A DNA stretch of 64,000 nt from positions 149,502-213,501 of the forward strand of contig CAIKZC010000001.1 of NCBI GenBank assembly GCA_903831815.1, written 5' to 3'. The notes under the pieces are model-generated. The model had not been told where the DNA came from and searched no databases. It saw nothing but the letters and a program-made list of their open reading frames with translations. This stretch comes from an uncultured bacterium (GTDB lineage Bacteria > Patescibacteriota > Minisyncoccia > Phycocordibacterales > UBA11359). The first letter of the stretch is position 1; the number at the start of each line of letters is the position of its first letter. Below, piece after piece: positions 1,490-29,873 of this stretch. The position numbers and the translations under genes are program-made.

Positions 1490-1858
1490 ATGTCATCTAC
1501 ACAAGCGCGGGTTCTGCGCATTTTGGTACTGTGCCACGAGGATGCGGAACAAATGGTGAGGTATCGAGAGCTGCAAGCTCTGCTGGCACGGACATTCCCC
1601 AAGGAGGATGAGCCGCTCGTAACGTTTCTGCGGCAAAACTATCGATCGGCCAAATCAGAATTGGATGAAGATAAAGTCGATGCTATAATCGGCCTTTCTG
1701 AATACAACATGGATTGGCTACAGACCATTGCGCCGAGTTTTCAGGAAGTTCGGATGCTGGTAATAACCAAAACCAACCGGAAGGCCGCCCACGGAATCAG
1801 GGTCGTAGACCCTTTGACGCTAACTCCTGCATTCCTTCGCTCCCTGCTGGAAGGGTAA
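1490..1858 (+). CDS. Hypothetical protein (122 aa) in a GC-elevated single-gene cassette
   Basis: It has an AGGAAGG RBS and the ORF fills the span from a promoter-like region to an intrinsic terminator at 1888-1920. Its GC is clearly above the neighbouring sequence. I see no recognizable domain. Confidence 0.55.
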   Translation: MSSTQARVLRILVLCHEDAEQMVRYRELQALLARTFPKEDEPLVTFLRQNYRSAKSELDEDKVDAIIGLSEYNMDWLQTIAPSFQEVRMLVITKTNRKAAHGIRVVDPLTLTPAFLRSLLEG

Positions 1859-1887
1859 CAACATCCTCCAAGATCACAAACTACGCT

Positions 1888-1920
1888 CCGACGACCTAAA
1901 AATCGTCGGGGCTTTTTATT
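1888..1920 (+). terminator. Rho-independent terminator (CCGACGA...TCGTCGG + T-run) between the 1490-1858 ORF and the convergent pgk
   Basis: A hairpin followed by GCTTTTTATTT is read in the sequence. Confidence 0.6.
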
Positions 1921-1929
1921 TGGAATTTA

Positions 1930-3105
1930 TTATTTTGAATTTTCCAGAGCTTCGATACCAACCAGAGTTTCGTTGGCGAGAAAATCCAACATCGCGCCAC
2001 CGGCGGTGGAAATAAATGTAAATTTGTCGGACAATTTTAATTCTTCAATTGAAGCGAGGGTGTCACCGCCACCGACGATAGTTTCGACACCGACATCTGC
2101 AATCGCTTTTGCCAAAGCAAAAGTAGCTTCAGTGTAACCGGTTTCAAAAATACCGAGAGGACCATTCCACAAAATAAATTTGGCCGATTTGATGAAAGGT
2201 AAAAGTTCGGTAACCGTTTCGGCACCATCGTCACAAATTTTGTCACCAACTTGTATTTCATTAGCTTTTCTGGTCACTTTTTTCTCCGATACTCCGGTCG
2301 CGCCAGTTGCCGTTTGCACCATAACGTCTACCGGCAAAATAAGCTTTGGATTAGCCAACATTTCGGTAAAACCAAAATCGGCAGATGAGTGCGCGGAGTC
2401 CCCGATTTCATATCCACGAGCTTTGAAAAGATCGTTTGATAATGCGCCACCAACAAAAACATTGTCGGCAATTCCCAAAAACTTTTTTATGAGAGGCGCT
2501 TTGGTTTCAAATTTTGCCCCACCTAAAATAAATAAATATGGTCGCGGCGGATTGAAAGCCTTGCTCAAATTGGCCACCTCTTTTTCAAAATTATATCCGG
2601 CAAAACTCGGCAGGAATTTTGGTACACCAATTATGGAAGCGTGCGGGCGGTGTGCAACCGAAAAAGCTTCATTTACATAAATATCAGCCAGCGCCGCCAA
2701 CTTTTTGGCAAAATCTTCATCATTTTTTTTCTCACCTTCCCAATTGCGAATATTTTCCACGACCACAACTTGCCCATCAGCAAGGCTTGTCAACGTCGCT
2801 GCCCCTTCAACACTCCATGGATCCTTCACAAAACTGGCCGGAAAAAATTGTTGTGCATATTCACAAACAATATCTAGCGACGGATGCTCTTTATTTTCCA
2901 AATGCGCCACCACGATAATTTTCGCTCCGGCTTTTCGCAAATATTCAATCGTTTCCAAAGATTGTTTGATGCGGAAACCATCGGTCACCGCATCATTTTT
3001 AATCGGCACATTCAAATCAAGTCGCAGAAGCACGCGTTTGCCGGCAATCGCCCCAACCACCGACTCCACATCTCGCACGGCTTTAAACGAAAGTTTATTT
3101 TGCAT
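1930..3105 (-). CDS. pgk: Phosphoglycerate kinase
   Basis: The 391-aa translation has canonical PGK motifs (RLDLNVP, the hinge and C-terminal GGGDT...AGGAMLDFL). Confidence 0.95.
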   Translation of the reverse strand: MQNKLSFKAVRDVESVVGAIAGKRVLLRLDLNVPIKNDAVTDGFRIKQSLETIEYLRKAGAKIIVVAHLENKEHPSLDIVCEYAQQFFPASFVKDPWSVEGAATLTSLADGQVVVVENIRNWEGEKKNDEDFAKKLAALADIYVNEAFSVAHRPHASIIGVPKFLPSFAGYNFEKEVANLSKAFNPPRPYLFILGGAKFETKAPLIKKFLGIADNVFVGGALSNDLFKARGYEIGDSAHSSADFGFTEMLANPKLILPVDVMVQTATGATGVSEKKVTRKANEIQVGDKICDDGAETVTELLPFIKSAKFILWNGPLGIFETGYTEATFALAKAIADVGVETIVGGGDTLASIEELKLSDKFTFISTAGGAMLDFLANETLVGIEALENSK

Positions 3106-3121
3106 TTATTTTTTCTAAAAT

Positions 3122-3883
3122 TTATTTACCGTTGGCCACGGAAACTATGTACATGATATTTTCCGGTACCAAACTATCGCGTCCGACCAGCAAGCCGTCA
3201 ATCTCACCGTCTTTTACAATATCTTCCACATTATCAATATTAACGGCACCTCCATATAAAATCGAAATGGAATCGGAAATTTGTTTGTCATACAATTCAG
3301 TCAAAACTTTTCTTATATAAATAGTCATGCCATGAATATCCGAAGGTAACATGGCCTCGCGACCTCCAATAGCCCAAACCGGTTCATAAGCGATCATAAC
3401 ATGGGCCATCATGCGTTTATCGATCTTTTTTAAACATTCTCGTAAATCTTCCTTGATAGTCACCAGATATTCGGCATTGCGATCACGGACTTTTTCACCG
3501 GTACATAATATAACAGTCATTTGAGCTTCGATTCCAGCTAAAACTTTCTTGGCAATTATATCCGGAGTCTCGCCAGCTACGGATCGACGCTCTGAATGAC
3601 CTACGATCAGATATTTTGCCCCAACGCTTTCAGCCATCGTTGGGCTCAAATAGCCAGTTAATGAGCCATTATTTTGCCAATAGGCATCTTGTGAGCCAAA
3701 CATTATTTTCTTGCCTTTATACGAAGAAACCAGCGCGTGTAAGTACGTCGCAGGGGGACAAATAACCAACTGTCCGGTCACATCGCTAGAAATTTGCTTT
3801 ATTTTACTAAATATTTTCTTGGCTTCAGGCAAAGTTGCGGGATTCATCTTCCAGTTCCCGATCACTATTCGTTTCTTTTTCAT
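3122..3883 (-). CDS. tpiA: Triosephosphate isomerase. The start is set at MKKKRIVIGNWKMN; the ORF-track ORF extends 17 codons further upstream.
   Basis: It shows NWKMN, AYEPVWAIG and GGAV motifs. The upstream extension overlaps the preceding gene's stop region. Confidence 0.9.
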   Translation of the reverse strand: MKKKRIVIGNWKMNPATLPEAKKIFSKIKQISSDVTGQLVICPPATYLHALVSSYKGKKIMFGSQDAYWQNNGSLTGYLSPTMAESVGAKYLIVGHSERRSVAGETPDIIAKKVLAGIEAQMTVILCTGEKVRDRNAEYLVTIKEDLRECLKKIDKRMMAHVMIAYEPVWAIGGREAMLPSDIHGMTIYIRKVLTELYDKQISDSISILYGGAVNIDNVEDIVKDGEIDGLLVGRDSLVPENIMYIVSVANGK

Positions 3884-8005: not shown

Positions 8006-9757
8006 TTATTCCGCTACGACACGCAAAACTTCCTCGATCGTCGTTTCGCCTTGAACCGCTTTGAAAACACCGTCTTCCAACATTGTGATCATGCCTTCTG
8101 TTTTGGCTTGTGCTTCAATGGTGTCCGATGTTGCGCCTTTCATAACCAAATCTTTTATGGTCGTAGACATTTTCAAAACTTCATGAATGCCGATACGTCC
8201 CTTGTATCCATCCTCCGCATCGGAACTTCCGATCGGTTTATAAAAAGGAATTTCTTTCCAAGTCGCAGTAGGTGCAACGACTTTTTCTTCAATCAAAATT
8301 TTCAAAACACGATTTAGGTCAACTAATTTGTTAAGTGAAGTCATCTCAGCTTCATCTAAGAAATATTTTTCTTTCTTTTCGGCAAGTCGACGAACCAAAC
8401 GTTGTGCTATAACGATATTAAGAGTAGAAACAAGTAAAAATGACTCGACTTTCATATCGAGAAGTCGTGGCATTGCTCCCGAGGCCGAGTTGGTGTGCAA
8501 AGTCGAAAGCACAAGGTGGCCTGTGAGCGCAGCGTTGATCGCAAGAGAAGCCGTTTCGTTGTCGCGAATTTCACCGACCATTATAATGTCCGGATCTTGT
8601 CGAACCAAAGTACGCAGGCCTGTGACGAAAGAGAAACCGATCTCGGGTTTGACTTGCGATTGATTGACTCGGGCCAATTGATATTCGATCGGATCTTCGA
8701 TCGTGGAAATATTTACGTCCGGCGTATTCAAAATATCCAAAACGGTATACAAAGTCGTCGTTTTTCCCGAACCGGTCGGACCAGTCGTAAGGATCATGCC
8801 AACAGTCGCTTTCATGGCTTGATGAATACGTTCCAAATTTTCGCCATGAAAACCTAGTTTCTCCAAAGTGTATCCGGCGGCGCTTTCTCGCAGGAGTCGC
8901 ATAACGGTTTTTTCACCGTAATAAGTCGGCAAAGTCGAAACACGGAAAGAAACTTTCTCCCCATTCATCTCGATCTTGAAACGTCCATCTTGCGGCAAAC
9001 GTTTTTCATCCAACTTCAAATTGGAAAGGACTTTGATACGCGCCGTAATGCCGCTGGCCGCATTTTTTGGCAAGACCATGGCGTCACGCAAAATACCGTC
9101 GATACGATATCTGATGAGCATATCGCTTTCGAGAGGTTCCATATGAATATCTGACGCGCCTTGTAAAATCGCATGTTTCAAAAGTGTTTCCACTATACGC
9201 ACGACAGGCAGATCTTCCGCTTGTTTCTTTAAATCACTGACACTGACATCTTCCCCTCCATTTCCGGACAACGATGTGATAGCGGCGGCATCTTTTTGAA
9301 TGAGATCGCCGAACTCAGCCTTCAAACTTTTTTGATACAACAAAACCGCGCTCTTAAGCGATTCACTATCTGTAAGGCGTGGCAAAATTTTTAGATCGAC
9401 TTTTTTCTTGATGAAATCGATGGCGCTCAAGTCCTCGGTATCAAGCATAGCCACTTCGAGCGAATCCTCGTTCTTTTTGAAAGCCACAATGTTGTGATTG
9501 CGGGCAATTGGTTCCGGAATAAGAGAAAGGACATCAAACGGAATCTTGGCGCCTTTCAAATCCACAAAAGGAATGCCGACAATATAGGCTTCCATGCGTC
9601 GCAAATCATCTTCGGTCATTTTGCCGGTGGTCACCAAATATTTTCCCAGATGAACATCCTTCTTTTTGGCTTCGATTTCCGCAGCGTCAAGATCGGCTCG
9701 GGAAATCAGTCCAGAGTCAATGATAAATTCCTTTAATTGTTTCTCTTCAATGTGCAT
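8006..9757 (-). CDS. pilB: Type IV pilus assembly ATPase PilB (GspE family). I place the start at the ATG of MHIEEKQLKEF; the ORF-track start is a GTG 20 codons upstream.
   Basis: It has an N-terminal GSPII-like domain, the Walker A GPTGSGKTTTLY, Asp and His boxes, and a TGHLVLSTLHTN motif. Confidence 0.9.
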   Translation of the reverse strand: MHIEEKQLKEFIIDSGLISRADLDAAEIEAKKKDVHLGKYLVTTGKMTEDDLRRMEAYIVGIPFVDLKGAKIPFDVLSLIPEPIARNHNIVAFKKNEDSLEVAMLDTEDLSAIDFIKKKVDLKILPRLTDSESLKSAVLLYQKSLKAEFGDLIQKDAAAITSLSGNGGEDVSVSDLKKQAEDLPVVRIVETLLKHAILQGASDIHMEPLESDMLIRYRIDGILRDAMVLPKNAASGITARIKVLSNLKLDEKRLPQDGRFKIEMNGEKVSFRVSTLPTYYGEKTVMRLLRESAAGYTLEKLGFHGENLERIHQAMKATVGMILTTGPTGSGKTTTLYTVLDILNTPDVNISTIEDPIEYQLARVNQSQVKPEIGFSFVTGLRTLVRQDPDIIMVGEIRDNETASLAINAALTGHLVLSTLHTNSASGAMPRLLDMKVESFLLVSTLNIVIAQRLVRRLAEKKEKYFLDEAEMTSLNKLVDLNRVLKILIEEKVVAPTATWKEIPFYKPIGSSDAEDGYKGRIGIHEVLKMSTTIKDLVMKGATSDTIEAQAKTEGMITMLEDGVFKAVQGETTIEEVLRVVAE

Positions 9758-9828
9758 GGAGAATAAGTGTGTTAAGTATAACAAATTAAATTCAAAAAAT
9801 CTCCACAAGATATACACGACTTGCGTAC

Positions 9829-9925
9829 AAGAATACGGTTTTCAGGGTCCGGATAGTTTTTCCGCTGAAAAACTTCCTCACACTCGCGCCGTCGCGCTCC
9901 GTGAGCCCCTGAAAACCGTATTCTT
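9829..9925. repeat. Copy 2 of the IR-flanked GC-rich core element. The 20-bp arms are AAGAATACGGTTTTCAGGG(T/G), and the core is in opposite orientation to copy 1.
   Basis: Arms at 9829-9848 and 9906-9925 match 19 of 20. The reverse-complemented core GCTCACGGAGCGCGACGGCGCGAGTGTGAGGAAG aligns with the copy-1 core at about 75% identity by eye. It sits between the divergent pilB and 10032 ORF starts. Confidence 0.6.
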
Positions 9926-10031
9926 TCCCGCAAGTTATGAATAAATTATGTAAATTTGACACCAGTAATGTTTTGTGATATTAAAGTAGAGGAAACTAGT
10001 ATTACTTTACCCATGAAAAGGAGTCCGCACA

Positions 10032-10478
10032 ATGAACACAGTTGCTAAACTGGAAGCTGAATTGCTGGAAATTGCGATTAAACGTGTGATTGCCGCCGGT
10101 CTTACAGTGAATGAAGAGGATGTGACACTCATCCTTCGTGTCAAAGGGCATGGTAGACATCATGACGGGTGGTCGACGGTGATTTCGGACGACGATTGGA
10201 CCAAGATCCTCGCTCTACCCTGGAAGTCGAATGTGGAAATAATGTTTCGAGCCCTGCGAGCAAGAAACAATGAACCTCTGACCGGAGAAGAATTGGAAGA
10301 CACCTTTGATGTGGGCACCGAAAGTTACGCCCTCGCAACTGAGGTAAATCGCTTCTTTCAGCCAAATTTCCTTCCCTTCATCCTCTCGGCCGTAACAACA
10401 CTGCCTCGGCGGAAAAGGCGTCAGGAGGGTAGGTACCGTTTATTCAACAAGAGGCCTCTGGCTAGCCCCGCCAAATAA
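10032..10478 (+). CDS. Hypothetical protein (148 aa) in a GC-elevated single-gene cassette
   Basis: A TTGACA-N17-TATTAA promoter lies at about 9953-9981 and an AAAGGAG RBS precedes the ATG. A terminator hairpin follows at about 10485-10530. I see no recognizable domain. Confidence 0.55.
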   Translation: MNTVAKLEAELLEIAIKRVIAAGLTVNEEDVTLILRVKGHGRHHDGWSTVISDDDWTKILALPWKSNVEIMFRALRARNNEPLTGEELEDTFDVGTESYALATEVNRFFQPNFLPFILSAVTTLPRRKRRQEGRYRLFNKRPLASPAK

Positions 10479-10867
10479 GCCATCGCCCCCATCGAGCCGC
10501 CTCTGGCCAGACAGGGGCGGTTTTCTTTTACTCTATTTTTTTGGGAAATTTGACAAAAATAATAAGTTGATATAAATTAATAGACAGCCTAGTTCCCAAT
10601 ACCATTTGCCGAACATTGATTGCCAATTGCTCGTGCAATTTGCAATTTCCGATTCCGCGTTTCCCGTAGCTTGGGTGCCCACGCACCCCCCCTCCGAAGG
10701 CCGCGCTTTCCCTTACCCACCGGGAGGCGCGGCCACTTTTTTTACCTCAATTTGACTTATTTCGTCAGATAGCCTATAGTTAAGGAGTCCAAGTTCGCCA
10801 CCAGCGAACTTCTTTTTTTAGAAAAACCGGCGAAAAACGACAATTTGCCGGAATAATCACAAAAAAC

Positions 10868-12091
10868 ATGTTTGATCTAAAAGTTATCAATTCCGTACTC
10901 GAGCAGTTGCAAGAAGAGCGCGGAATTCCAAAAGAAAAAATTATTGAGGCTATTGAAGCCGCTTTGGCGACCGCCTACAAGAAAGAATACGGCAAAAAAG
11001 GCCAGATTGTTCGCGCTACTTTCAATTTAAATACCGGCGCTACCGAATTTTCTCAAGTCAAAATTGTCGTTGATGAAACTAAAGTCCTTTTTGAGAAAAA
11101 AGAAGGTGAAGAAGCCGAAAAAGAAGAAAAAACCGAAAAAGTTGTCAAAACTAAGAAATCCAAGAAAGCTGCCGAGGAAACTGAAACTCCGGTCAATCCT
11201 GACGATGAATTTAAGGTGCATTTCAATCCGGAACACCACATTTTGTTAGATGATGCCAAGAAAATTAAAAAAGACGCCAAAATTGATGACGAAATCGTTT
11301 TCCCACTTGAAGTTAAAGGAGATTACGGTCGCATCGCTTCTCAAACCGCAAAACAAGTCATTATTCAGAAAATTCGCGAAGCTGAAAAAGTTTCTGTGCT
11401 CGGCGAATACGGCAAACGCGAAGGCGAAATCGTTTCCGGAACCGTTCAGAGACTTGAAAGGGGCAATGTTTTCCTTGATATGGGGCGAACTACAGCCATT
11501 TTGCCATATGAAGAGCAAATTCCAGGCGAGCGATACCGACAAGGAGAACGCGTTCACGCTGTGCTTCTCAAAGTTGAAGACGGTGCTCGAGGCGTATTCA
11601 TTAAACTTTCACGTTCAAATCCAAAATTCTTGGAAAAACTTTTTGCGCAAGAAGCTCCTGAGGTTGTCGGCGGTACTGTAGTTATAAAAGGTGTGGTACG
11701 AGAAGCCGGTTCACGTTCAAAAGTGGCCGCTAGCTCAAATGATGAACACGTTGATCCTGTTGGATCACTAGTTGGTCAACGAGGCGTGCGTGTTTCGACT
11801 GTTATGAGTGAGCTCGGTGGTGAGAAAATCGATATTATTGAATGGTCAGCTGATCCTAAAAAATATATTGAGGAATCTCTTTCTCCGGCCAAAGTTCAGA
11901 GTGTAGAAATTGATGAGGCTGAACACAAAGCAACGGTGACTGTTGCCGAAGATCAGCAATCTCTTGCAATTGGTAAAGGTGGACAAAACGTGCGACTTGC
12001 CGCAAAACTTACCGGTTGGAGAATCGACATTCAATCAACAAAACCTGAAAAAGATACCAAAAAAGACGATGATGAAGATGAGAGTGAGTAA
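10868..12091 (+). CDS. nusA: Transcription termination/antitermination factor NusA, carrying a Lys/Glu-rich low-complexity insertion
   Basis: It has the NusA N-terminal domain, S1 and KH domains (LAIGKGGQNVRLAAKLTGWRIDI). The KE-rich insert is at about aa 75-105. Confidence 0.9.
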   Translation: MFDLKVINSVLEQLQEERGIPKEKIIEAIEAALATAYKKEYGKKGQIVRATFNLNTGATEFSQVKIVVDETKVLFEKKEGEEAEKEEKTEKVVKTKKSKKAAEETETPVNPDDEFKVHFNPEHHILLDDAKKIKKDAKIDDEIVFPLEVKGDYGRIASQTAKQVIIQKIREAEKVSVLGEYGKREGEIVSGTVQRLERGNVFLDMGRTTAILPYEEQIPGERYRQGERVHAVLLKVEDGARGVFIKLSRSNPKFLEKLFAQEAPEVVGGTVVIKGVVREAGSRSKVAASSNDEHVDPVGSLVGQRGVRVSTVMSELGGEKIDIIEWSADPKKYIEESLSPAKVQSVEIDEAEHKATVTVAEDQQSLAIGKGGQNVRLAAKLTGWRIDIQSTKPEKDTKKDDDEDESE

Positions 12092-12116
12092 GATTTAAAA
12101 AAACAAACCAGCAAAC

Positions 12117-12146
12117 AAAAAACTTCCCTCCGGAAGTTTTTTGTTT
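12117..12146 (+). terminator. Rho-independent terminator after nusA (AACTTCC...GGAAGTT + T-run)
   Basis: Read directly from the sequence. Confidence 0.7.
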
Positions 12147-12290
12147 GTGAAAGGTTATCCACCACTATTACTTTGACGCAGCAAATAAAATAACTATACT
12201 ATTAGCTAGATAAGATTTGCTGTTGGCACGGTGCCAAATAGCAATTGTTGAATTTTATCGGTAACAACCATTGGCGAAGGAGCAGATACC

Positions 12291-12461
12291 ATGGCGAAAG
12301 CGAAGCTATACGTTCCACCCAAAGTTCTGGGTGTAACTACAAGCCCCGATCTGACCAAGTGCATGCAAAACACTGGCGGGATCCAGCCGCGCTCGACGTT
12401 TCGGATTTATCGACAGCAAGTTGTACCTCAACGGCGAACTCTAAGCGCCTGCTTGAGATGA
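12291..12461 (+). CDS. Possible small ORF (56 aa) in a GC-rich micro-cassette. Its stop overlaps the ATG of a further 15-codon ORF (ATGA).
   Basis: A TTGACG-N16-TATACT promoter is at about 12174-12202 and an AAGGAG RBS sits 7 nt upstream of the ATG at 12291. A strong terminator is at 12507-12545. An alternative is a non-coding RNA; the ORF-track ORF 12245-12505 is in another frame and lacks an RBS. Confidence 0.2.
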   Translation: MAKAKLYVPPKVLGVTTSPDLTKCMQNTGGIQPRSTFRIYRQQVVPQRRTLSACLR

Positions 12462-12930
12462 CGAACGATCTGTTCGAAAATCTCGGCGGCATCACCAATA
12501 ACTAACCCAGACAGTCCCACATTGGACTGCCTGGGTTCGTTTTTTATGTAAAAATTATGTCCAAAAAAGTTATCCCCTTTTTACATTTGACCGAAATTAA
12601 TTAAATAATTATACTTTTACTTGGATGTACGAACGTGATTTGCTGGCGTATCCAGCCGTCACCGCGCGATTCCGCGCCTTATCCCCGTTGGCCATAGGCC
12701 AGAGGAGGAAGCATGCACCGCGTCGCTTTGATTGGGACTCATGGTCCGCCCCTGCGAAAAGCGCAGCGGGCGCTGAAGACCGCACGGAGATCCTGATCGT
12801 CAAGAAGACCGATCGAACGGCGTATGCCGGATAGACCTGAGCAATTTGCTGCTCGGGTCTGTTTTTTTGCAAAATTCCCATTTTTATATATAGTATAGGA
12901 CATATTCATTAATAGATAAGTAAAGAAAAT

Positions 12931-14958
12931 ATGAACGCGTATATCATTTTTGCATTAGTAAGTTCGGTGGTCGCTATTGTTTACGGTCTCGTTCTCGCTC
13001 GAATTATTATTAAAAAAGATGCCGGTAGCGAACGAATGCAAGAAATCGCTAGCGCTATTCAAAAAGGCGCCAAAGCTTATCTCAATCGCCAATACAAAAC
13101 CGTTGCCATTGTTGCCATTGTTCTCTTCGCAATTATTTGGCCACTTATCGGTTTCACAACTGCTCTTGGTTTCGTGGTTGGAGCTGTTTTCTCAGCGCTC
13201 GCCGGATATATTGGAATGAACATTTCTGTGCGTGCTAACGTTCGTACAACTGAAGCTGCCAAAAAAGGAATTAAAGAAGCACTTTCTCTCGCTTTCCGCG
13301 GAGGCTCTGTTACAGGTTTGCTCGTTGTCGGTCTCGCTCTCCTCGGCGTTACCGGGTTTTACGCACTTTCAAACGGTGACACCAAAGCTCTCATTGGTCT
13401 CGCTTTTGGTGCCAGCTTAATTTCTGTTTTCGCTCGACTTGGTGGCGGTATTTTCACCAAAGCTGCTGACGTCGGCGCCGATCTAGTTGGAAAAGTTGAA
13501 GCCAATATTCCTGAAGATGATCCACGAAATCCTGCTGTCATTGCCGACAACGTTGGAGACAACGTCGGAGATTGCGCCGGTATGGCCGCCGATCTTTTTG
13601 AAACATATGTTGTGACAGCTATCGCCGCAATTTTGCTCGGCGGAATTATTTTCAAAGATGCTACCAAAGAAGTTTCTGACGCTGTCATAATGTTTCCTCT
13701 CGTACTCGGTGGTGTTTCAATTTTCTGTTCAATTATTGGAACATGGTTCGTGCGACTTGGAAAAAGCGGAAATATTATGAACGCTTTGTACAAAGGTCTC
13801 GCAGTTTCTGGAATTTTGGCCGCAATCGCTTTCTACTTTGTGACTAAAATGATCATGGTTGGAAATGGTTTGTTCACTTCAAATCAATTATTTATCTGTT
13901 CACTCATCGGACTTTTGTTAACTGCTGCGCTTGTTGTCATTACTGAGTACTACACTTCGACAAAATACGCGCCGGTCAAATCTATCGCCAAAGCTTCTCT
14001 CTCCGGTCACGGCACCAACGTCATTCAAGGTCTCGCTATTTCAATGAAAGCTACCGCACTTCCTCTCATTGCGATTGTGCTCGCAATTCTTGGTTCATAT
14101 CATTTTGCCGGATTGTACGGTATCGCTGTCGCCGCTGTTGCTATGCTTTCAATGGCCGGAATTATTGTAGCTATCGATTCATACGGTCCAATTACTGATA
14201 ACGCGGGAGGTATTGCCGAAATGGCGGAGTTGCCACAAGAAGTTCGTGATGTTACTGATCCGCTCGACGCTGTTGGAAACACAACCAAAGCCGTTACCAA
14301 AGGGTATGCCATTGGTTCTGCTGGGCTTGCTGCTCTCGTTTTGTTTGCTTCATATACACAAGAATTTGCAAACATGGGACATTCTCTAGTTTTCAGTTTA
14401 AGTGATCCAAAAGTTATTGTCGGTTTGTTTATCGGCGGACTTCTTCCATACTACTTCGCGGCAATGTGCATGGAAGCCGTTGGTAAAGCAGCTGGCGCTG
14501 TCGTCGAAGAAGTCCGCCGCCAATTCCGCGAGATCGCCGGCATTATGCAAGGCACCGCAAAACCAGATTATGAAAAGTGTGTCGACATCGTTACCCTTGG
14601 CGCTATCAAAGAAATGATTTTGCCTTCTCTCATCCCTGTCGTCGCTCCAATTCTAGTTGGATTTATTTTGGGTCCTGTTGCCCTCGGCGGTTTGCTCGTC
14701 GGTTCAATCGTTACCGGTTTGTTCGTCGCTATTTCCATGACTTCAGGAGGAGGTGCTTGGGACAATGCCAAGAAATTTATTGAAAAAGGTGAACATGGTG
14801 GCAAAGGTGGAGATGCTCACAAAGCCGCTGTCACCGGAGACACTGTCGGCGATCCATACAAAGATACCGCCGGTCCAGCCATCAACCCAATGATCAAGAT
14901 CTTGAACATTGTCGCTCTCCTCATCGTGCCATTCCTCATTAAATTCTTGATTAAGTAA
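12931..14958 (+). CDS. hppA: Membrane-bound proton-translocating pyrophosphatase
   Basis: The 675-aa polytopic protein carries the H+-PPase signatures [20 protein letters not shown] and [19 protein letters not shown]. Confidence 0.95.
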
Positions 14959-17152: not shown

Positions 17153-17158
17153 TTGCCA

Positions 17159-18123: not shown

Positions 18124-18696
18124 ATGAACCTTATCCCAACAGTTATCGAAAAATCTCAAAACGGCGAGCGGGCATACGATATTTACTCACGCTTGCTCAA
18201 AGAGCGTATTATTTTCCTCGGTGGTCCGATCGACGACGATAGCGCCAATATTGTCATCGCTCAATTACTTTTCCTTCAATCTGAAGATCCTAAAAAAGAT
18301 ATTTCCATGTACATCAATTCTCCTGGTGGATCCGTCACAGCCGCTCTCGCCATTCTCGACACCATGAATTTTATTAAATCAGACGTTTCAACCGTTTGTG
18401 TCGGTCTCGCTGCTTCTGCTGGCGCACTTCTCCTCTCAGCTGGCGTCAAAGGCAAGCGTTTTGCTCTCACCAATTCCGAAATTATGATTCACCAACCATC
18501 AGGTGGAGCTGAAGGGCGCGCTGCCGATATTGAAATCACCGCTAAACAAATTATAAAAATTCGAGAAAACCTCAACAAAATTTTGGCTGCCAACACTGGA
18601 CAACCACTTTCAAAAATCCAAAAAGACGTTGATCGCGACTTTTTCATGAGCGCCGAAGAAGCCAAAAAGTACGGCATCATAGACAAAATCCTATAA
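18124..18696 (+). CDS. clpP: ATP-dependent Clp protease proteolytic subunit
   Basis: The 190-aa translation has the Ser-His-Asp triad context ([19 protein letters not shown]). Confidence 0.95.
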
Positions 18697-18760
18697 TTAA
18701 GATAGTATCTCATTTTGGAAGTCATGTTCTCAATCACTGTTCTAACAAAGGAGTGTTCCC

Positions 18761-19177
18761 ATGTCTGTAAAAAAGAAATCGGATGACATCTCGGATGACA
18801 TCTCGGATGACAACAAGGAGCGGATGCCGCTTGCCATCGTGGTTCAAGGAATACCTTCAACTACAGACCCCAAGACCCTCAAACGCCTAGAGCGTGATCT
18901 GAAAAAGACATTCAGTGTGGTCGCAAACCATGCCAAGATTCACGCACATTTTCAGCCGGAATTTTTCGCCAAATCTCTCGGGAAAAGAAACGTGCAGATT
19001 ACCGCATTTGTTCTCGGCTGCAGCGCGAAGACTGCCTACGACAACATGTCACAGACCTTGCCAACGGTTAAGGTGAATGGGTGGAAAGATGTCCTTTCGC
19101 GCGAAGCGGAAAAAGTGATCAGAAAGCACTACCGGCATGCAAGTGCACTATGCATCATCACAGGCAGCGAGGAATGA
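18761..19177 (+). CDS. Hypothetical protein (138 aa) with an N-terminal DDISDDISDD repeat, in a GC-elevated cassette
   Basis: It has an AAAGGAG RBS and a 3x12-nt tandem repeat at 18780-18815. A strong terminator follows at 19208-19243. Confidence 0.55.
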   Translation: MSVKKKSDDISDDISDDNKERMPLAIVVQGIPSTTDPKTLKRLERDLKKTFSVVANHAKIHAHFQPEFFAKSLGKRNVQITAFVLGCSAKTAYDNMSQTLPTVKVNGWKDVLSREAEKVIRKHYRHASALCIITGSEE

Positions 19178-19207
19178 GGACTAGGAGAGGAACGAAACAG
19201 AACAAAA

Positions 19208-19243
19208 GGGCGGGTCTGCTGCGCAGACCCGCCCTTCTTTTTT
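19208..19243 (+). terminator. Rho-independent terminator (GGGCGGGTCTGC...GCAGACCCGCCC + T-run)
   Basis: A 12-bp perfect GC-rich stem followed by TTCTTTTTT. Confidence 0.8.
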
Positions 19244-19334
19244 ATACTTACCTAGACAAAACCGTTAAACAATGATATCTTCTCATCAGAAAAAACGTCG
19301 TAATCAATCACCAACCTGAATAAAAGGAGCTCCT

Positions 19335-19610
19335 ATGACATTTTCTCCAGCCGTCCTGTCATGGTTTGCCGAACACGTCTTTCAGCCAAGTGATAAGGAA
19401 GGATTTCTTAAGGTACTCCGCGAACAACCTGAAGTGGTAAAGGCATTTCTTATGAGGAACTTTTACTTCATGACACTATCCGCTGCTGCCGATACCAATG
19501 AAGTAATCTTAACAATCAACCTGGGTAACCCGACAGAAGAAGTGGACGCCATCATGAAGCACCTCCGCGAAAAGTTCCTCTCAGGAGAAACTGCCGCCAA
19601 TCCGGCGTAA
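19335..19610 (+). CDS. Hypothetical protein (91 aa) in a GC-elevated cassette
   Basis: It has an AAAGGAG RBS and a terminator at 19637-19667 (CCTCCGT...ACGGAGG + T-run). Confidence 0.5.
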   Translation: MTFSPAVLSWFAEHVFQPSDKEGFLKVLREQPEVVKAFLMRNFYFMTLSAAADTNEVILTINLGNPTEEVDAIMKHLREKFLSGETAANPA

Positions 19611-19833
19611 CCGATCAACTTGTGTCACCTAACACCGCCTCCGTATCCAAAACGGAGGCTTCTTTTTTATGCAGTAGACTTTTTTTCGAAATTGTTTTAT
19701 GATGTAGATGTTCATTATTTGTTAATTTCACCTTTCGTTTTTTAACCTTTTACGCAATGTTACACGTTGTTCTGTCTCAAAGTATAAACCTATAGCATTT
19801 TCTAAAAGCCCGGAGAACGAGGGTGCCTGAAAT

Positions 19834-22371: not shown

Positions 22372-22689
22372 TTATTTCATCGTATCATTATTTATTTTCT
22401 CGATTTTCGACAAAACGCTACTCAAATCATCACCAGGCGCAGTTTTATTTCGTTTTATATAGCCACACACAACACATTTGTTGGAAAGAATAAATTCATC
22501 TTTTTCCATCTCGATTTTTATCGGCTCCATCATACCGCCACATTTTTCGGCCCGATCTCCCGGAAATTTATCGACATGTTTGCTCCACAAACAAGTCGGG
22601 CAGTGGTTGGTGTAGCCACTTCCCTTCACTTCGCGGCTGCAATGACCGCAAACGAAATCTTCTTTATTTTTCTGAAACTTTAGACTCAT
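22372..22689 (-). CDS. RNHCP-domain protein (Cys-rich zinc ribbon)
   Basis: It carries the GYTNHCPTCLWSKH motif characteristic of the RNHCP domain, plus multiple CxxC pairs. Confidence 0.65.
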   Translation of the reverse strand: MSLKFQKNKEDFVCGHCSREVKGSGYTNHCPTCLWSKHVDKFPGDRAEKCGGMMEPIKIEMEKDEFILSNKCVVCGYIKRNKTAPGDDLSSVLSKIEKINNDTMK

Positions 22690-23098
22690 GGGTGTTCAAA
22701 AAAATTTTCATTAATTCTACATCTCTCAGATCTTTTTCTCTTGCCAGTTCCGATTTAAATTTAATAAGTTCCGTTAATGGTAAAAATGGTAAACCCTCAA
22801 TGATATCTGCATTTTTTATCAATTCATCGGTATCCGGTCGATAATTTTTATATTTATAATTTGAAAACACCTCAGTATCGCCCTTAACCAATAGTTTACA
22901 ACGCAAAACTCGCCAGAAAAACCATTTTCTTTTCCAGCCGTCGTTTTTTAGTTGTTGAAACAACTCTTTATTTACCAACAGATCAACATCCCTGGCCGGT
23001 CTAATTCCATGAGCTTCCATGACACCCCCTATTATAATATATTGACCGAGAGGTAAATTTAGTGATTTTACCCTTTCGAAAATAGAAGGATTATTCAT
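22664..23098 (-). CDS. Putative minimal nucleotidyltransferase (NTase-fold) protein
   Basis: IIGGVMEAHGIRPARDVDLLV fits the G[GS]x9-13Dh[DE]h NTase motif. Its stop region overlaps the downstream RNHCP ORF by 26 nt. Confidence 0.45.
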   Translation of the reverse strand: MNNPSIFERVKSLNLPLGQYIIIGGVMEAHGIRPARDVDLLVNKELFQQLKNDGWKRKWFFWRVLRCKLLVKGDTEVFSNYKYKNYRPDTDELIKNADIIEGLPFLPLTELIKFKSELAREKDLRDVELMKIFLNTHESKVSEK

Positions 23099-26301: not shown

Positions 26302-27045
26302 TTAATTCAACGCGTTCCACATTATTTCAAATTGTTCTTTTTGCATTTGCACAATACTTCTATTTTCAATCACCACCGTCATTATTGGCGCAGCCATTTG
26401 AGTAATGATGACTCGATGAGGAGTGATGACCATGTTTGCCGACAACACAGTATCTTTCGGTAGAAATTTTACAGTCATTGTAGTATTTCTTTCTATCTCT
26501 TTATAATAATGCGCGTCACTTGTATCCTGCAAAATCGCTCGCAAATTTAAATTATATTTAACTCGGTTTTCAATAAACTTGGTAAAATAATCTCTGTCCA
26601 TACTCAAAAACTTTTCCATATCAGAAATAACCACGTAATCATCTCCGGGTTTCAGTCCATCAAGAATGTGATCATAAACAGTTCTAACACCTTGAACACC
26701 TTCATAATATTTTATAAAACTTTCTCCACCTTTTAAGTTGTACATTGCCGTAAGTTCCGGTAGCACTTTTTTAAACCGATCCTTTTTCTGTTCAAATATT
26801 TGTTCAAGTTTTTCCGGACCTTCAGCCGTATATAGAGTTTTGAGACCTTTCACTTCGTTAATGATCAAACCTCTCAGTTTAAGGGTTTCAAGCACAGAAT
26901 ATGCTGTCGTTCTCTTAATTTCAGCTTCTTTAGCAATCTTTAGAACCGTGGCAGGCCCGAGGGAAAGGGAAGAAAGGTAAACTTTAGACTCATTTTCCGA
27001 AAGCCCTAAATCCTGAATATATGATATAAAATCTATTTTTTTCAT
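26302..27045 (-). CDS. TrmB-family transcriptional regulator (HTH plus C-terminal effector domain). The start is placed at MKKIDFISYI.
   Basis: It has the N-terminal wHTH LGLSENESKVYLSSLSLGPATVLKIAKEAEIKRTTAYSVLETL followed by a TrmB-like C-domain. Confidence 0.6.
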   Translation of the reverse strand: MKKIDFISYIQDLGLSENESKVYLSSLSLGPATVLKIAKEAEIKRTTAYSVLETLKLRGLIINEVKGLKTLYTAEGPEKLEQIFEQKKDRFKKVLPELTAMYNLKGGESFIKYYEGVQGVRTVYDHILDGLKPGDDYVVISDMEKFLSMDRDYFTKFIENRVKYNLNLRAILQDTSDAHYYKEIERNTTMTVKFLPKDTVLSANMVITPHRVIITQMAAPIMTVVIENRSIVQMQKEQFEIMWNALN

Positions 27046-27267
27046 ATAATTTTTACTATTTTGAATATATGTCAAACTATTTGACAACACTATTATTACA
27101 TAATCTGCATAATTAGCAAGCTAATTTACAGCCTATATGTGGATATGTCGTCATATTTGACATACTATACAATAATGTGCTATACTTGTAAATAGATAAA
27201 CAGTTCTTTGACTAAGGGTTCTTCACTTGTTGTGAGGGACAAATAGCCAAAAGGAAAGGAGATTGCG

Positions 27268-27867
27268 ATGAATAACGTGACGAAGTTTGCGAAGTGGTTT
27301 CTTGAGAATTTCCCCGTCGATTGCATGACATGCAGTTCCAAGGTGACATCCTCATCAACACGAATCGGCAGAATGCTGCTGAAATTGCAACTTCCATTGG
27401 AGAAATTGCAATATGTAGCCCGTTTCAAGAAAGAAGGAAACGACGAAGATGGTGATACTGTGTACACTGCCTGGTTTGTGGGTTGTAGTCGTGGACCAGA
27501 AGTGCCATCGCTGTACGGTCCGGAAGCGTTCATTGCCGAGCTTGAATACCTAACAGGCGAAAAGGCGGAGCTTTCAACCGAAAAGAGGGGGCGAGTTGAT
27601 ATGTTCGGACAAGCCCTACTGAAGGAGATCGAAAGGATTGCGATCCAAAGAAAGGAGAACTTAAAACTTTCTCAGAAATGGTCGATACTCAATACTGAGC
27701 TTACGACAATCGCAAAGGAACTTAAACCAACGTTTGAGGCAATAGCAATTAGAATAACCTCATCCGAATCTTGGGATGAAAAACTCCGCGAGATTTTTGA
27801 AAAGAAATGGGTTGAGCTCGGTCTCGACAAACTTCCGATCCCGAAAGCACCTAAGCCACAAAAATAG
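27268..27867 (+). CDS. Hypothetical protein (199 aa), GC-elevated, and a paralog of the next gene
   Basis: A TTGACA-N18-TATACT promoter lies at about 27155-27190 and the RBS is AAAGGAGATTGCG. The N-terminus MNNVTKFAKWFLENFPVDCMTCSS parallels MNNVTQFAVWLLIVTEDIKCLGCWS of the 27992 ORF. Confidence 0.55.
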   Translation: MNNVTKFAKWFLENFPVDCMTCSSKVTSSSTRIGRMLLKLQLPLEKLQYVARFKKEGNDEDGDTVYTAWFVGCSRGPEVPSLYGPEAFIAELEYLTGEKAELSTEKRGRVDMFGQALLKEIERIAIQRKENLKLSQKWSILNTELTTIAKELKPTFEAIAIRITSSESWDEKLREIFEKKWVELGLDKLPIPKAPKPQK

Positions 27868-27991
27868 GTACGGTCTGGCAGGTACCGATAAACCTGCTTG
27901 CTCTCCGCCACAGGCGGACTGATGAGTCTTCCGATAGCGTGTGCTACCGGCAAGACGAAAGCAGAAAGTTCTTTCACAAGAAGGAGATACG

Positions 27992-28495
27992 ATGAATAAC
28001 GTAACACAGTTCGCAGTATGGTTACTCATTGTAACGGAGGATATCAAATGTCTGGGTTGTTGGAGCATGAGCGATTCTCGGGTAGATTTCTTAATAAGAA
28101 TCACCAAAAAACTGTTAGCCCTTCAACTCCCGGTTGAAAAGATAAAGGTAACAGCAGAATTGTATAAGACCGGGAAAGGAGATACATTTATCAGGTTCGT
28201 GGAACCATGCAGTCAGTTTCAGTTTCTCGCTGAACTGGAGTTGGTCTCGGAACAAACCATTGAGAGTTTGACTGAGAAACAGCGGCAGGAAGTTGAGGCT
28301 GCGAAGGAGATAATCCGAAAGGAAATTCTTAGGCTCAAACTACAGGAAGAGAGACGTAAGACAATCGAAGCAGAAGTTACAAAATTCATTAACGAGTTAA
28401 TGAATTCGATGGACAACGAAAATGATTTACAACTTCTTCGAACTGAAGTCCCAGATCTTGTAAGCAAACTTCTCTACCAACAAAGAAAGGTGTGA
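27992..28495 (+). CDS. Hypothetical protein (168 aa), tandem paralog of 27268-27867. The start is set at the RBS-preceded MNNVTQ rather than the ORF-track upstream Met.
   Basis: The RBS AAGGAGATACG precedes the ATG. Conserved blocks are shared with the upstream paralog (LQLP.EK..V.A....G.GDT), and the C-terminus is coiled-coil-like. A terminator lies at 28500-28535. Confidence 0.55.
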   Translation: MNNVTQFAVWLLIVTEDIKCLGCWSMSDSRVDFLIRITKKLLALQLPVEKIKVTAELYKTGKGDTFIRFVEPCSQFQFLAELELVSEQTIESLTEKQRQEVEAAKEIIRKEILRLKLQEERRKTIEAEVTKFINELMNSMDNENDLQLLRTEVPDLVSKLLYQQRKV

Positions 28496-28555
28496 TCGAC
28501 AAAAACCCCGGCACTTTCGCTCGGGGTTTTCTTTTTGAATAAGTTTTTTTGAAAA

Positions 28556-29323
28556 TTATTTTATCTCCAGCGAAATAGGGCAATGGTCGGAACCATAGAT
28601 GTGCGACAAAATTTCGGTTTTATTTATGCGCGGCAATAAATCGGACGAAACAAAAAAGTAATCGATGCGCCAGCCGACATTGCGGTCACGAGCAGCGGTT
28701 TTCATATCCCAATAAGTGTACGCGTCAATTTTATTCGGATTTAAATGTCGAAATATATCGACGTAGCCATGATTAACGACTTCATCTATCCACGCGCGCT
28801 CTTCCGGCAAAAATCCGGTGTTCTCTTCATTCTCTTTTGGTCGAGCCAGATCAATTTCTTCATGTGCAGTATTAATGTCACCACAAAAAATAACTGATTT
28901 GCTTTGCTTGCGCAGTTTCTCCACAAATTTCAAAAACTCGTCATAAAATTCCAATTTATATTTCAAACGCTCCGGCCCGCCTCCGCCGTTCGGAAAATAA
29001 ACATTGAGCAAAACAAAATCTTTGTAATACGCAGCAATGAGTCGCCCCTCGATATCCAAATGGGGAAGTCCTAGCACGAATTCAACTTTCTCCGGTTTTA
29101 TTTTTGAATACAAAGCCACGCCGCTGTAACCTTTTTTCTCTTTTGGCGAATCGAAATAAGAAAAATAACCGTGAGGGTTTCTGATTTCTTCCGGCAATTG
29201 TTCGGCGGTCGCTTTCACTTCCTGCAAACAAAAAATATCCGGTCGCTCGATCATGAGCCATTGCCAATTGCCTTTTTTGACCACTGCACGCAGACCATTT
29301 ACGTTCCAAGAAATGATTTTCAT
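28556..29323 (-). CDS. xth: Exodeoxyribonuclease III (AP endonuclease, EEP family). The start is at MKIISWNVNG.
   Basis: Motifs WNVNG, QE.K, GD.N..H..ID and SDHCP are present. The split palindromic motif lies 8 nt upstream of the ATG. Confidence 0.9.
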   Translation of the reverse strand: MKIISWNVNGLRAVVKKGNWQWLMIERPDIFCLQEVKATAEQLPEEIRNPHGYFSYFDSPKEKKGYSGVALYSKIKPEKVEFVLGLPHLDIEGRLIAAYYKDFVLLNVYFPNGGGGPERLKYKLEFYDEFLKFVEKLRKQSKSVIFCGDINTAHEEIDLARPKENEENTGFLPEERAWIDEVVNHGYVDIFRHLNPNKIDAYTYWDMKTAARDRNVGWRIDYFFVSSDLLPRINKTEILSHIYGSDHCPISLEIK

Positions 29324-29330
29324 AGAATTC

Positions 29331-29359
29331 ACTATCTTAGGGTTACACCACTTAAGATA
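29331..29359. promoter_or_regulatory. Split copy of the palindromic motif, ACTATCTTA-GGGTTACACCA-CTTAAGATA, upstream of xth
   Basis: The half-sites are separated by GGGTTACACCA. The same AGGGTTACAC block flanks the intact palindrome at 43536-43558. Confidence 0.4.
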
Positions 29360-29483
29360 AGATACTGAAATGGTATCAATAATCGCCTCAAAATGAAACA
29401 GTTCTTCAATTTTTATTCTCTTGAATATTTTTGACATTTATTGTATAAGTTACGTCAGATCCTAACACTAACCTGGAGGAAAC

Positions 29484-29873
29484 ATGCAGTTAAGCGTAAG
29501 AATACGTTTTGTCGATTCCCGAAGTTTGGTTCCATTCGAAGCAGAAAGAGTGCCGTTTGGCCAGCTTTATGAGTTCCTTTTCCGAGTAGCCCAAAGAACA
29601 TCAGACTTGTTCGGTAACGAGCAGGTCCTTCATTTGGAGGCAACAACGGCAAGGCTTGCCGGCTCTCCCGGTCCATCCATTACTCATATCACGGAAATTT
29701 GGATCGGACGCACGTCGAGAGAGGTTTTGCCTGAAGCCAAGTTGTGTTCGTACTTTTGGCAATACCCCGCGCTCGACCAGATAGACGAGAAGCAAAGGGA
29801 CGAGTTGGTCGGTGAATTGTCGACGAACCTAAACATCGGTCTGAGCAGATGGATGCCTGAAATGAAAAGATAG
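29484..29873 (+). CDS. Hypothetical protein (129 aa) in a GC-elevated cassette
   Basis: The RBS is CTGGAGGAAAC, and a terminator at 29905-29950 (AACCCGACGAGCAAGAGTCGGGTTTTTT) follows. Confidence 0.5.
   Translation: MQLSVRIRFVDSRSLVPFEAERVPFGQLYEFLFRVAQRTSDLFGNEQVLHLEATTARLAGSPGPSITHITEIWIGRTSREVLPEAKLCSYFWQYPALDQIDEKQRDELVGELSTNLNIGLSRWMPEMKR

Follow-up and report, generated by a model that had tools for sequence, protein, structure and literature searches.

The closest described counterpart of the genes considered here is the phage moron, defined as an independent promoter-gene-terminator unit of deviant composition that lies between genes adjacent in related genomes (Cumby et al. 2012, PMC3594210). 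Here we describe ten short open reading frames (ORFs) with a similar anatomy, referred to below as cassettes and named by their first nucleotide, in a 64-kb stretch of chromosome from an uncultured Paceibacteria (Parcubacteria) member of the Candidate Phyla Radiation (CPR) (contig CAIKZC010000001.1, positions 149,502 to 213,501; this whole stretch is the window). An earlier reading of the letters alone (the sequence-only reading) had singled out the same ten ORFs, and their coordinates are as it gave them. Like morons, the cassettes carry, as judged by sequence motifs, their own promoters and factor-independent terminators and would form independent transcription units; they lie between genes that are neighbours in related genomes, have a composition unlike their flanks, are patchily distributed, and are mostly small genes of unknown function. 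They differ from morons in being carried by a cellular chromosome and not a prophage, where they are flanked by PGK, PilB, NusA, the Na+/H+-pyrophosphatase (PPase), trigger factor (Tig), ClpP, RNase Y, an exonuclease III-like protein (Xth) and XerD. They have no phage-family matches, and also differ from the host genes in their translation-initiation signal. Given this anatomy, the cellular carrier and the lack of a tie to phages or plasmids, the cassettes appear to work like morons without being members of the class.

A second point of comparison is translation initiation. In Bacteroidia the anti-Shine-Dalgarno (anti-SD) sequence is present but occluded, and the rare Shine-Dalgarno (SD)-led genes are specially regulated; in Flavobacterium johnsoniae the strongly SD-led rpsU is preferentially translated by ribosomes lacking bS21 (PMC7797042, PMC9976891, PMC13000453). 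In Parcubacteria the anti-SD motif of 16S rRNA was detected in 48% of genomes and is missing in a subgroup overlapping the uL1-lacking lineages, for which the authors suggest that no SD helix is formed (Tsurumaki et al., PMC9297842). The window shares with Bacteroidia a bulk of genes without SD and a small minority with a very strong one. However, the SD-led gene of Bacteroidia is ribosomal, conserved and known to act in feedback, whereas those of the window are non-conserved orphans, and the anti-SD that is occluded there is possibly absent in this lineage (PMC9297842). A full-text literature search gave no description of SD-led orphans within SD-less CPR genomes.

ORFans and accessory islets resemble the cassettes in comprising lineage-restricted short genes of atypical composition at variable junctions of syntenic genomes. 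Acquired genes and ORFans are reportedly AT-richer than their host as a rule, whereas in a low-GC host the cassettes have the higher GC, with values converging on about 0.45-0.5 in hosts that range from 0.31 to 0.58, and they are single-gene modules with complete expression signals. Integron cassettes are likewise small single genes, mostly of unknown function, each followed by a structured palindromic sequence, but they are promoterless, are arrayed beside intI and end in attC sites; the units described here carry promoters, lie dispersed over 28 kb and terminate in a hairpin and T-run (a distinction judged without an attC model). The recombinase encoded at 29948-30973 scores 241 and 233 bits as XerD/XerC and 133 bits as an integron integrase.

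We favour, with a probability of about 0.62, the reading that the cassettes are moron-like autonomous expression modules, probably acquired horizontally, that serve as species-specific accessory genes of a CPR chromosome. Below we set out their initiation signals, composition and distribution, and then weigh this reading against its alternatives.

Shine-Dalgarno-led starts in a Shine-Dalgarno-less window

The cassettes are the only SD-led genes of an otherwise SD-less window. This property went unnoticed in the sequence-only reading, and the dichotomy, together with its recurrence across the clade, is what the present analysis adds. Both strands of the whole window were scanned for AGGAG or GGAGG followed 4-11 nt on by a start codon opening an ORF of at least 25 codons. 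The true gene starts matched are those of eight of the ten cassettes only, and all other matches lie deep within genes. The two cassettes outside this strict motif carry AGGAAGG (1490) and AGGTGA (15815), and AGGAG or GGAGG at SD spacing is found at 0 of the 57 core gene starts in the window.

The predicted duplex with the anti-SD is -6.4 kcal/mol or stronger in all ten cassettes, bearing out the strong ribosome-binding sites that had been claimed for them. Its mean is -8.6 kcal/mol, compared to -1.4 kcal/mol for the 57 other starts (Mann-Whitney p = 1.4e-6), 9% of which reach -6 kcal/mol. The core mean is weaker than that of random 20-mers from the same genome (-2.3 kcal/mol, p = 0.006), and the contrast persists even if the most favourable alternative start is chosen for every core gene. 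Upstream of a number of core genes (32162, 36413, 37559, 40352, 53917, 57992, 61875 and others) a TATAAT-like -10 box ends 6-9 nt before the ATG, and other core genes have A/T-rich leaders and no SD. The proximity of these boxes to the ATG and the absence of SD suggest that leaderless or SD-independent translation is widespread in this genome. A 16S rRNA gene was sought in the window and in all fetched related loci, and none is present there.

The PNPase gene (33196-35442) is the sole conserved gene with a strong GGAGG upstream (33176-33195, duplex -10.5 kcal/mol), which lies 14 nt from the ATG, beyond normal SD spacing.

Composition, promoters and terminators

Composition and termination also set the cassettes apart from the resident genes. 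Their mean GC is 0.500, compared to 0.405 for the 57 other ORFs (Mann-Whitney p = 9e-6), and their mean GC at third codon positions (GC3) is 0.541, compared to 0.380 (p = 2e-6), so that the difference from core genes, which the sequence-only reading had judged by eye, holds by computation. The shift falls mostly on third codon positions. Seven cassettes (1490, 10032, 12291, 12713, 15815, 18761 and 29484) exceed 0.48 GC, the highest other gene being the PPase gene at 0.459; 19335 has 0.471, and 27992-28495, an exception at 0.409, is not elevated. Peaks of at least 0.50 GC in 250-nt windows also occur within some core genes, and the distinction is one of whole genes.

Two other causes of the composition shift were considered and rejected. 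Codon optimisation for high expression is contradicted by the genes for HU and S15, small and highly expressed, which are not elevated (GC 0.436 and 0.413; GC3 0.30 and 0.47) and lack SD. Small gene size fails because other small genes have 0.32-0.44 GC, among them those for HU, S15, RnpA and a DksA-like protein (0.37-0.44).

The terminators consist of a hairpin and T-run with a folding free energy of -16 to -29 kcal/mol, and a strong intrinsic terminator follows nine of the ten cassettes, 27268 being the one without. Mean hairpin energy is -19 kcal/mol, compared to -3 kcal/mol for other genes (Mann-Whitney p = 3e-6), and the region contains 39 terminator-like sites where 22.2 +/- 5.4 are expected. 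Leaders are 35-100 nt long. The match to the -35/-10 consensus is 10-11 of 12 positions in five units and 9 of 12 in four, so that the near-consensus promoters of the sequence-only reading are borne out for the former five, while 27992 has no promoter of its own; as a class, promoter-like sites are weakly enriched (46, with 36.2 +/- 5.3 expected). Since 27992 lacks its own promoter and 27268 a terminator, the two are assigned to one bicistronic unit. The description of the cassettes as a uniform class has to be given up, in view of this bicistron, the unshifted GC of 27992 and the uneven promoters.

Distribution among related genomes

A NusA query retrieved 80 species-level relatives (62-73% identity), every one a Patescibacteria metagenome-assembled genome (MAG), under labels that vary between Taylor-, Adler-, Zambryski-, Nomura- and Kaiserbacteria, Paceibacteria and, loosely, 'Saccharibacteria'. 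As all of them are Patescibacteria MAGs, the organism is placed among the Paceibacteria (Parcubacteria), and it is a CPR bacterium. The window is a piece of its chromosome with 41.2% GC.

None of the cassettes has a tblastn match in the 1.2 Mb that make up the 80 related loci. The core order PGK-TIM-pil-PilC-PilB / NusA / PPase / Tig-RsmE-ClpP / RNase Y-HU is kept in the relatives, and four slots that hold cassettes in the window are short or otherwise filled there: g967/PGK (19-617 bp), PilB/NusA (22 bp-3.8 kb), NusA/PPase (47 bp-1 kb) and ClpP/RNase Y (237-490 bp). This comparison covers the junctions of conserved synteny; synteny around 27268, 27992 and 29484 is not conserved in the relatives. 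No syntenic orthologue was found in the 80 relatives. In the collection of about 15 billion proteins, nine cassette proteins are present, each as a singleton 90% cluster on 2-13 contigs. With this and their absence from the relatives' slots, the view of the cassettes as a compositionally distinct, lineage-specific orphan class, probably acquired, is upheld. Identical DNA, including both flanks, is found on independent metagenome assemblies, which shows that the cassettes are not chimeras or assembly artefacts. All contigs with the exact NusA have one and the same arrangement and so are not informative on strain-level presence/absence polymorphism. The population occurs in the samples of ENA ERZ18626762, ERZ18625277, ERZ18625396 and ERZ27313081.

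Similar genes recur across the clade. ORFs of the relatives were called greedily and classed by the number of other loci with a homologue. The fraction with an SD-led start is 14.1% for ORFs with no homologue, and 5.2%, 1.4%, 3.0% and 1.1% with rising conservation. SD starts occur in 56/391 orphan ORFs and 12/627 core ORFs (Fisher p = 2e-14), those 12 being mostly internal false positives. Compared to core genes, the SD-led orphans are shifted by +0.05 GC and +0.14 GC3 in hosts below 0.40 GC, by +0.03 and +0.11 in mid-GC hosts, and by -0.01 and -0.05 in hosts above 0.46 GC. Unrelated SD-led orphans, on either strand, fill the same junctions in other species, including PilB/NusA, Tig/RsmE/ClpP, RsmE/ClpP, the region upstream of PGK, ClpP/RNase Y and RNase Y/HU. 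Those inspected (in L033, L071, L077 and L079) have the same anatomy of leader, SD, ATG, small ORF and terminator.

Homologues of individual cassettes are rare. An exhaustive phmmer search with 1490 against 1.84 billion representatives returned itself and two marginal matches to giant proteins only; these two were treated as spurious, as they reflect DUF11 Ig-like repeats with summed multi-repeat scores. A word-indexed search of 5.8e9 proteins returned only itself for 29484, and 27268 and 27992 have no relatives in the JGI metagenome, viral or phage collections. The products of 27268 and 27992 are paralogues of each other (36% identity, E = 1e-13). For 10032, the search of 5.8e9 proteins found two homologues (50-52% identity) on contigs L085 and L086. 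In L085 the homologue follows UvrC-Ddl-tRNA-Ala and precedes a run of GC-elevated small orphans, and in L086 it has a PriA-like gene on one side and, on the other, a tRNA-like sequence (with no clear anticodon by ARAGORN) followed by MurA, so that the family has three contexts in three genomes. Family members have GC of 0.50, 0.45 and 0.47 in the window, L085 and L086, where neighbouring host genes have 0.41, 0.41 and 0.49-0.52; the gene is GC-richer than the low-GC hosts and GC-poorer than the higher-GC host L086. The SD is kept 7-8 nt upstream in all three (AGGAG, AGGAG and AAGGA), while the neighbours are SD-less or leaderless-looking. Its retention across homologues that have diverged by about 50% argues that the signal is read.

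In L085 (4477-6400), the 10032 homologue heads small orphan ORFs with 0.45-0.51 GC next to neighbours with 0.34-0.41. The first two are separated by a clear promoter-terminator boundary, and the further small orphans each have a promoter and terminator.

Coding capacity of the cassettes

Six long ORFs (1490, 10032, 18761, 19335, 27268 and 27992) show significant codon periodicity (p = 3e-4 to 8e-3), comparable to that of the bona fide small genes for S15 and RnpA. Conservation at the protein level is seen in two families, the 27268/27992 paralogues and 10032 with its two homologues, and the cassette ORF bodies fold like dinucleotide shuffles, with a mean z of -0.2 that matches core genes. For 29484, where periodicity is not significant, the coding case rests on the SD, the ATG and an ORF of 129 codons.

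In the three shortest ORFs (12291, 12713 and 15815) codon periodicity is again not significant, and the transcripts of their units (12173-12545, 12587-12868 and 15718-15991) fold beyond shuffles (z = -3.1, -4.1 and -5.3, respectively). These units may be small RNAs (sRNAs), leader peptides or small proteins. The suggestion of the sequence-only reading that some of the shortest are structured sRNAs is plausible in view of these values, although no Rfam family is matched. More generally, the cassettes could be non-coding, structured small RNAs whose GC-richness yields accidental ORFs. For three to four short units this is a possibility to be taken seriously, though we lean away from it. It is favoured by the folding of the three units, the missing periodicity of their ORFs and of 29484, the two frames open over 12291-12461, an ORF-less sibling unit at 10550-10743, and the lower frequency of stop codons in GC-rich sequence. 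It does not account for the correctly spaced SD and ATG at every ORF, and neither an Rfam match nor nucleotide conservation that would permit a covariation test was found for the short units; permissive Rfam scans of 12100-12950, 9700-10900 and 15590-16080 gave chance-level matches only (E > 0.3). For the six long ORFs, whose periodicity, two conserved protein families and shuffle-like bodies all speak for translation, the structured-RNA explanation was rejected and is barely credible.

Searches of the cassettes against Pfam, NCBIfam, PHROGs and PADLOC profiles gave no match, a PDB sequence search (including 18761) gave nothing below E = 0.1, and AlphaFold2 gave no confident fold for 10032 (two-sequence alignment, mean predicted local distance difference test score (pLDDT) 40.4) or 1490 alone (40.0). 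The sequence-only reading had seen no domain or signal, which agrees with the four profile libraries, although a single transmembrane helix is predicted in 15815. The products look like small, probably cytosolic proteins and one putative membrane peptide.

The peptide encoded by unit 15718-15991 resembles type I toxins in its length of less than 60 aa, its single hydrophobic helix and its charged tail, and its mRNA has a long structured 5' untranslated region and predicted 5'-3' pairing. It differs from them in having no homology to any known toxin family. No minus-strand promoter-like site for an antisense RNA gene was found at 15600-16100 by a consensus scan, which a weak or non-consensus promoter could escape.

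Origin and possible functions

Under the favoured reading, each module would comprise a promoter of the sigma-70 type, a leader of 35-100 nt bearing a strong SD, a short ORF and an intrinsic terminator, placed at operon boundaries among conserved syntenic housekeeping genes. The modules would most likely have been gained whole, by horizontal transfer out of a pool of genes in circulation among CPR bacteria, one with a composition (about 45-52% GC) and an SD-led translation grammar of its own. They would be transcribed and terminated independently of their neighbours, as phage morons are, and translated by SD/anti-SD pairing, while core genes would start without SD from A/T-rich leaders or leaderless mRNAs. 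Horizontal acquisition from a CPR-associated pool is the best-supported origin, in view of the indels at the slots, the orphan status of the genes, the GC3 shift and the occurrence of the 10032 family in three contexts.

Several observations weigh against this reading. No donor, mobile-element hallmark, flanking repeat, insertion signature or recombinase link was found around the cassettes. Searches by tblastn of 50,697 phage records (27268, 10032 and 18761) and of PLSDB plasmids (10032) gave no match, and IMG/VR viral scans, which included 18761 and 19335, gave no relatives; together with the lack of a PHROG match, these results led us to reject a phage or plasmid origin. The regression of gene GC on host GC has a slope of 0.61 (r = 0.73) for the SD-led orphans of the relatives and 0.98 for core genes, and the orphans, since they still track their host, may be old residents or native fast-evolving genes and not recent imports. 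With this partial tracking and no donor or mobilisation signature, horizontal acquisition is still something that we infer. The greedy ORF calls behind these figures include spurious ORFs, which dilute the SD signal of orphans but do not create it. A coding signature is missing in 29484 and the three short ORFs. Expression of the cassettes is predicted from sequence signals, and if the anti-SD is absent here, as a survey reports a detectable motif to be in many Parcubacteria (PMC9297842), the SD could not act by pairing.

Native, fast-evolving, lineage-specific genes might instead form a dedicated SD regulon, on ribosomes that normally ignore the SD, as in Bacteroidia. Translation of the SD-led mRNAs would be confined to a certain state of the ribosome or a certain condition, and the GC shift and SD would be products of selection and not foreign marks. 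The strong SD of the cassettes among SD-less core genes, the SD kept across the diverged 10032 homologues and the partial dependence of cassette GC on host GC are all compatible with this, and the occluded anti-SD and SD-led rpsU of F. johnsoniae provide a precedent (PMC7797042, PMC9976891, PMC13000453). One would expect a regulon with a conserved function to be retained, however, and the cassettes are singletons absent from relatives; the 10032 family moreover sits in three different contexts. We consider this alternative unlikely.

A bolder extension of the favoured reading is that the clade runs two initiation grammars in one cell, an SD-less or leaderless one for the core and another for fast-turnover, SD-led modules buffered at about 45-52% GC whatever the GC of the host; we put this forward tentatively, as less likely than not to hold in full. 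If the anti-SD is present, the cassettes would be a class with privileged or conditional translation. Without it, they could be genes arriving from SD-using donors and not normally readable by the recipient, or could carry a purine-rich element with a non-16S mechanism.

CPR bacteria have tiny genomes, in which a large share of the variable genes has no known function. In this clade a recognisable subset of such genes consists of complete, self-sufficient expression modules that recur at the same operon junctions across species and bear a ribosome-binding signal foreign to the core genome. This gives a simple rule for spotting the accessory pool, namely to look for single genes that are SD-led, GC-shifted and bounded by a terminator. 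Such genes could serve as natural reporters for translation initiation and gene flow in uncultivated episymbionts, and they bear on the published puzzle of whether some Parcubacteria truly lack a working anti-SD (PMC9297842).

The sequence-only reading had suggested recently acquired effector or immunity-like genes, for example from a high-GC host if the organism is an episymbiont. We weighed this suggestion in a form that also covers toxin-antitoxin and defence genes, with 15815 as a type I toxin, and in which the donor is the host of the episymbiont. The organism does belong to the CPR, a group with many episymbionts, the cassettes are GC-shifted, and the product of 15815 is a hydrophobic peptide of 37 aa whose highly structured mRNA shows 5'-3' pairing. 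The proposed functions find no counterpart in PADLOC, where the defence-system search gave nothing significant, or in PHROG, Pfam or NCBIfam, and no secretion signals are present; 15815 has no antisense promoter nearby in the consensus scan. As to the donor, no homologue occurs beyond CPR-like contigs (among 1.84e9 proteins for 1490 and 5.8e9 for 10032 and 29484). The 10032 homologues lie only on contigs with an SD-less, leaderless-looking core, and the one in L086 is GC-poorer than its host. We therefore set aside both the role and the high-GC origin, and regard this explanation as improbable. De novo birth from intergenic DNA, chance ORFs or assembly artefacts, which the orphan status and the low pLDDT of 1490 and 10032 (about 40) might suggest, are more improbable still, as local intergenic DNA is AT-rich and unlikely to give rise in place to 400-600 bp at 50% GC, no unit lacks any of the set of promoter, SD, ORF and terminator once 27268 and 27992 are taken as one, two families are conserved at the protein level, and identical sequence occurs on up to 13 independent contigs.

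Features of the individual units

The coordinates and signals of the units are listed in Table 1, together with a further unit (10550-10743) that was absent from the sequence-only reading.

Table 1. Cassette units and their ORFs in the window, with predicted expression signals.
Feature	Coordinates	Strand	Signals and properties
Unit 1	1409-1917	+	Promoter TTTACA-17-TTAAAT (1409-1437); 52-nt leader, SD AGGAAGG; terminator 1885-1917; slot g967-PGK is 19-48 bp in relatives L044 and L067
Unit 1 ORF	1490-1858	+	122 aa; GC 0.512, GC3 0.553; codon periodicity p = 8e-4
Unit 2	9956-10529	+	Promoter TTGACA-17-TATTAA (9956-9984); SD AAAGGAGT; terminator 10494-10529
Unit 2 ORF	10032-10478	+	148 aa; GC 0.499; exact protein on 13 contigs
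Additional unit	10550-10743	+	Promoter TTGACA-17-TAAATT (10550-10578); terminator 10699-10743; GC-rich body without SD-led ORF, periodicity or Rfam match; candidate sRNA
Unit 3	12173-12545	+	Promoter TTGACG-16-TATACT (12173-12200); 90-nt leader, SD GAAGGAG; terminator 12504-12545
Unit 3 ORFs	12291-12461; 12458-12505	+	56 aa, with ATGA overlap with a 15-codon ORF; candidate coding
Unit 4	12587-12868	+	Promoter TTGACC-17-TATACT (12587-12615); GC-rich leader of about 97 nt, perfect SD AGGAGG; terminator 12834-12868
Unit 4 ORF	12713-12796	+	27 codons; GC 0.63; no periodicity; fold z = -4.1; candidate sRNA or leader peptide
Unit 5	15718-15991	+	Promoter TTGACA-17-TATACT, extended -10 (15718-15746); 68-nt structured leader, SD AGGTGA; terminator 15967-15991
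Unit 5 ORF	15815-15928	+	37 aa, MKTFMKICIEIATVVCVGLAVVITGWRFLRGTYRWPS; one hydrophobic helix (predicted transmembrane) and basic tail
Unit 6	18680-19243	+	Promoter TAGACA-17-TAGTAT (18680-18708); SD AAAGGAGT; terminator 19206-19243, stem 14-16 bp
Unit 6 ORF	18761-19177	+	138 aa; GC 0.489, GC3 0.576; periodicity p = 0.001
Unit 7	19253-19668	+	Promoter TAGACA-17-TATCTT (19253-19281); SD AAAGGAGC; terminator 19637-19668
Unit 7 ORF	19335-19610	+	91 aa; GC 0.471; periodicity p = 0.001
Units 8 and 9 (bicistron)	27157-28536	+	Promoter TTGACA-18-TATACT (27157-27186); SD AGGAGA at both ORFs; single terminator 28504-28536
Unit 8 ORF	27268-27867	+	199 aa; GC 0.452; periodicity p = 0.008
Unit 9 ORF	27992-28495	+	167 aa; GC 0.409; periodicity p = 3e-4
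Unit 10	29421-29949	+	Promoter TTGAAT-17-TATAAG (29421-29449); SD TGGAGG; terminator 29921-29949
Unit 10 ORF	29484-29873	+	129 aa; GC 0.490; periodicity not significant (p = 0.31)

Periodicity in 12291-12461 is absent (p = 0.54). The promoter and terminator of unit 4 are covered by an antisense 90-aa ORF (12609-12881) that is probably spurious. A weak tblastn match (E = 0.003) between unit 4 and the ORF-less unit was rejected as homology because the alignment has no real similarity. The exact peptide of unit 5 is missing from called proteins. The terminator of unit 10 abuts the 3' end of the convergent xerD-like gene that encodes the recombinase described above.

All ten cassettes and the additional unit lie on the + strand, irrespective of the orientation of their neighbours, and although the sequence-only reading covered the + strand alone, the both-strand SD motif scan of the window revealed no minus-strand cassette that it had missed. 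This bias may be chance among about seven independent loci, given that the SD-led orphans of relatives use both strands.

Other features of the window

The long ORFs of the window encode housekeeping functions, including PGK, TIM, a type IV pilus operon with PilC and PilB, NusA, PPase, trigger factor, RsmE, ClpP, RNase Y, HU, CCA-adding enzyme, a TrmB-like regulator, an exonuclease III-like protein, XerD, S15 and PNPase, alongside tRNAs; in an Rfam 15 scan of the window, the gathering score was reached by four tRNAs only. A cluster resembling type IV secretion or conjugation genes (45364-56655), encoding a PrgI-family protein (50272), a TraG/VirB4-like P-loop ATPase (51340) and a type IV secretion system pilin (54948), is tightly packed and SD-less and contains no GC-shifted cassettes. 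A class of AT-rich genes (GC 0.32-0.35; 15059-15592, 22664-23098, 26302-27090, 36413-37102 and 60672-60917), which includes an NYN-domain protein missing from the same slot in relatives, has neither SD nor strong terminators. This class matches the classical AT-rich signature of acquired genes, the opposite of the GC-shifted cassettes.

A repeated Y-shaped palindrome is present at 884-1008, 9790-9964 and 17918-18049, and also in two related contigs (L008, 15235-15360, - strand; L035, 870-1000, - strand). Its closing stem of 30-51 nt, with arm sequences that differ among copies, encloses a roughly 60-nt core, which forms two hairpins, one of them AT-rich (GGAAAUUUCC...) and the other GC-rich. 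The three window copies have fold z-scores of -8.2, -9.9 and -11.4, the exact core 16-mer CTCGCGCCGTCGCGCT is found again in two other species, and there is no Rfam match. The element may represent a structured RNA or, alternatively, a mobile palindrome of small size.

The nusA gene has a promoter TTGACT-17-TATAGT (within 10752-10820) and a hairpin and T-run at 10791-10819, about 50 nt before its start, which may be an attenuator and brings nusA autoregulation to mind. Perfect palindromes that are AT-rich and nearly alike (AACAAAAAACTTCC....GGAAGTTTTTTGTT, 91% identical) end the genes for NusA (12112-12147) and trigger factor (17120-17157) and could be bidirectional terminators.

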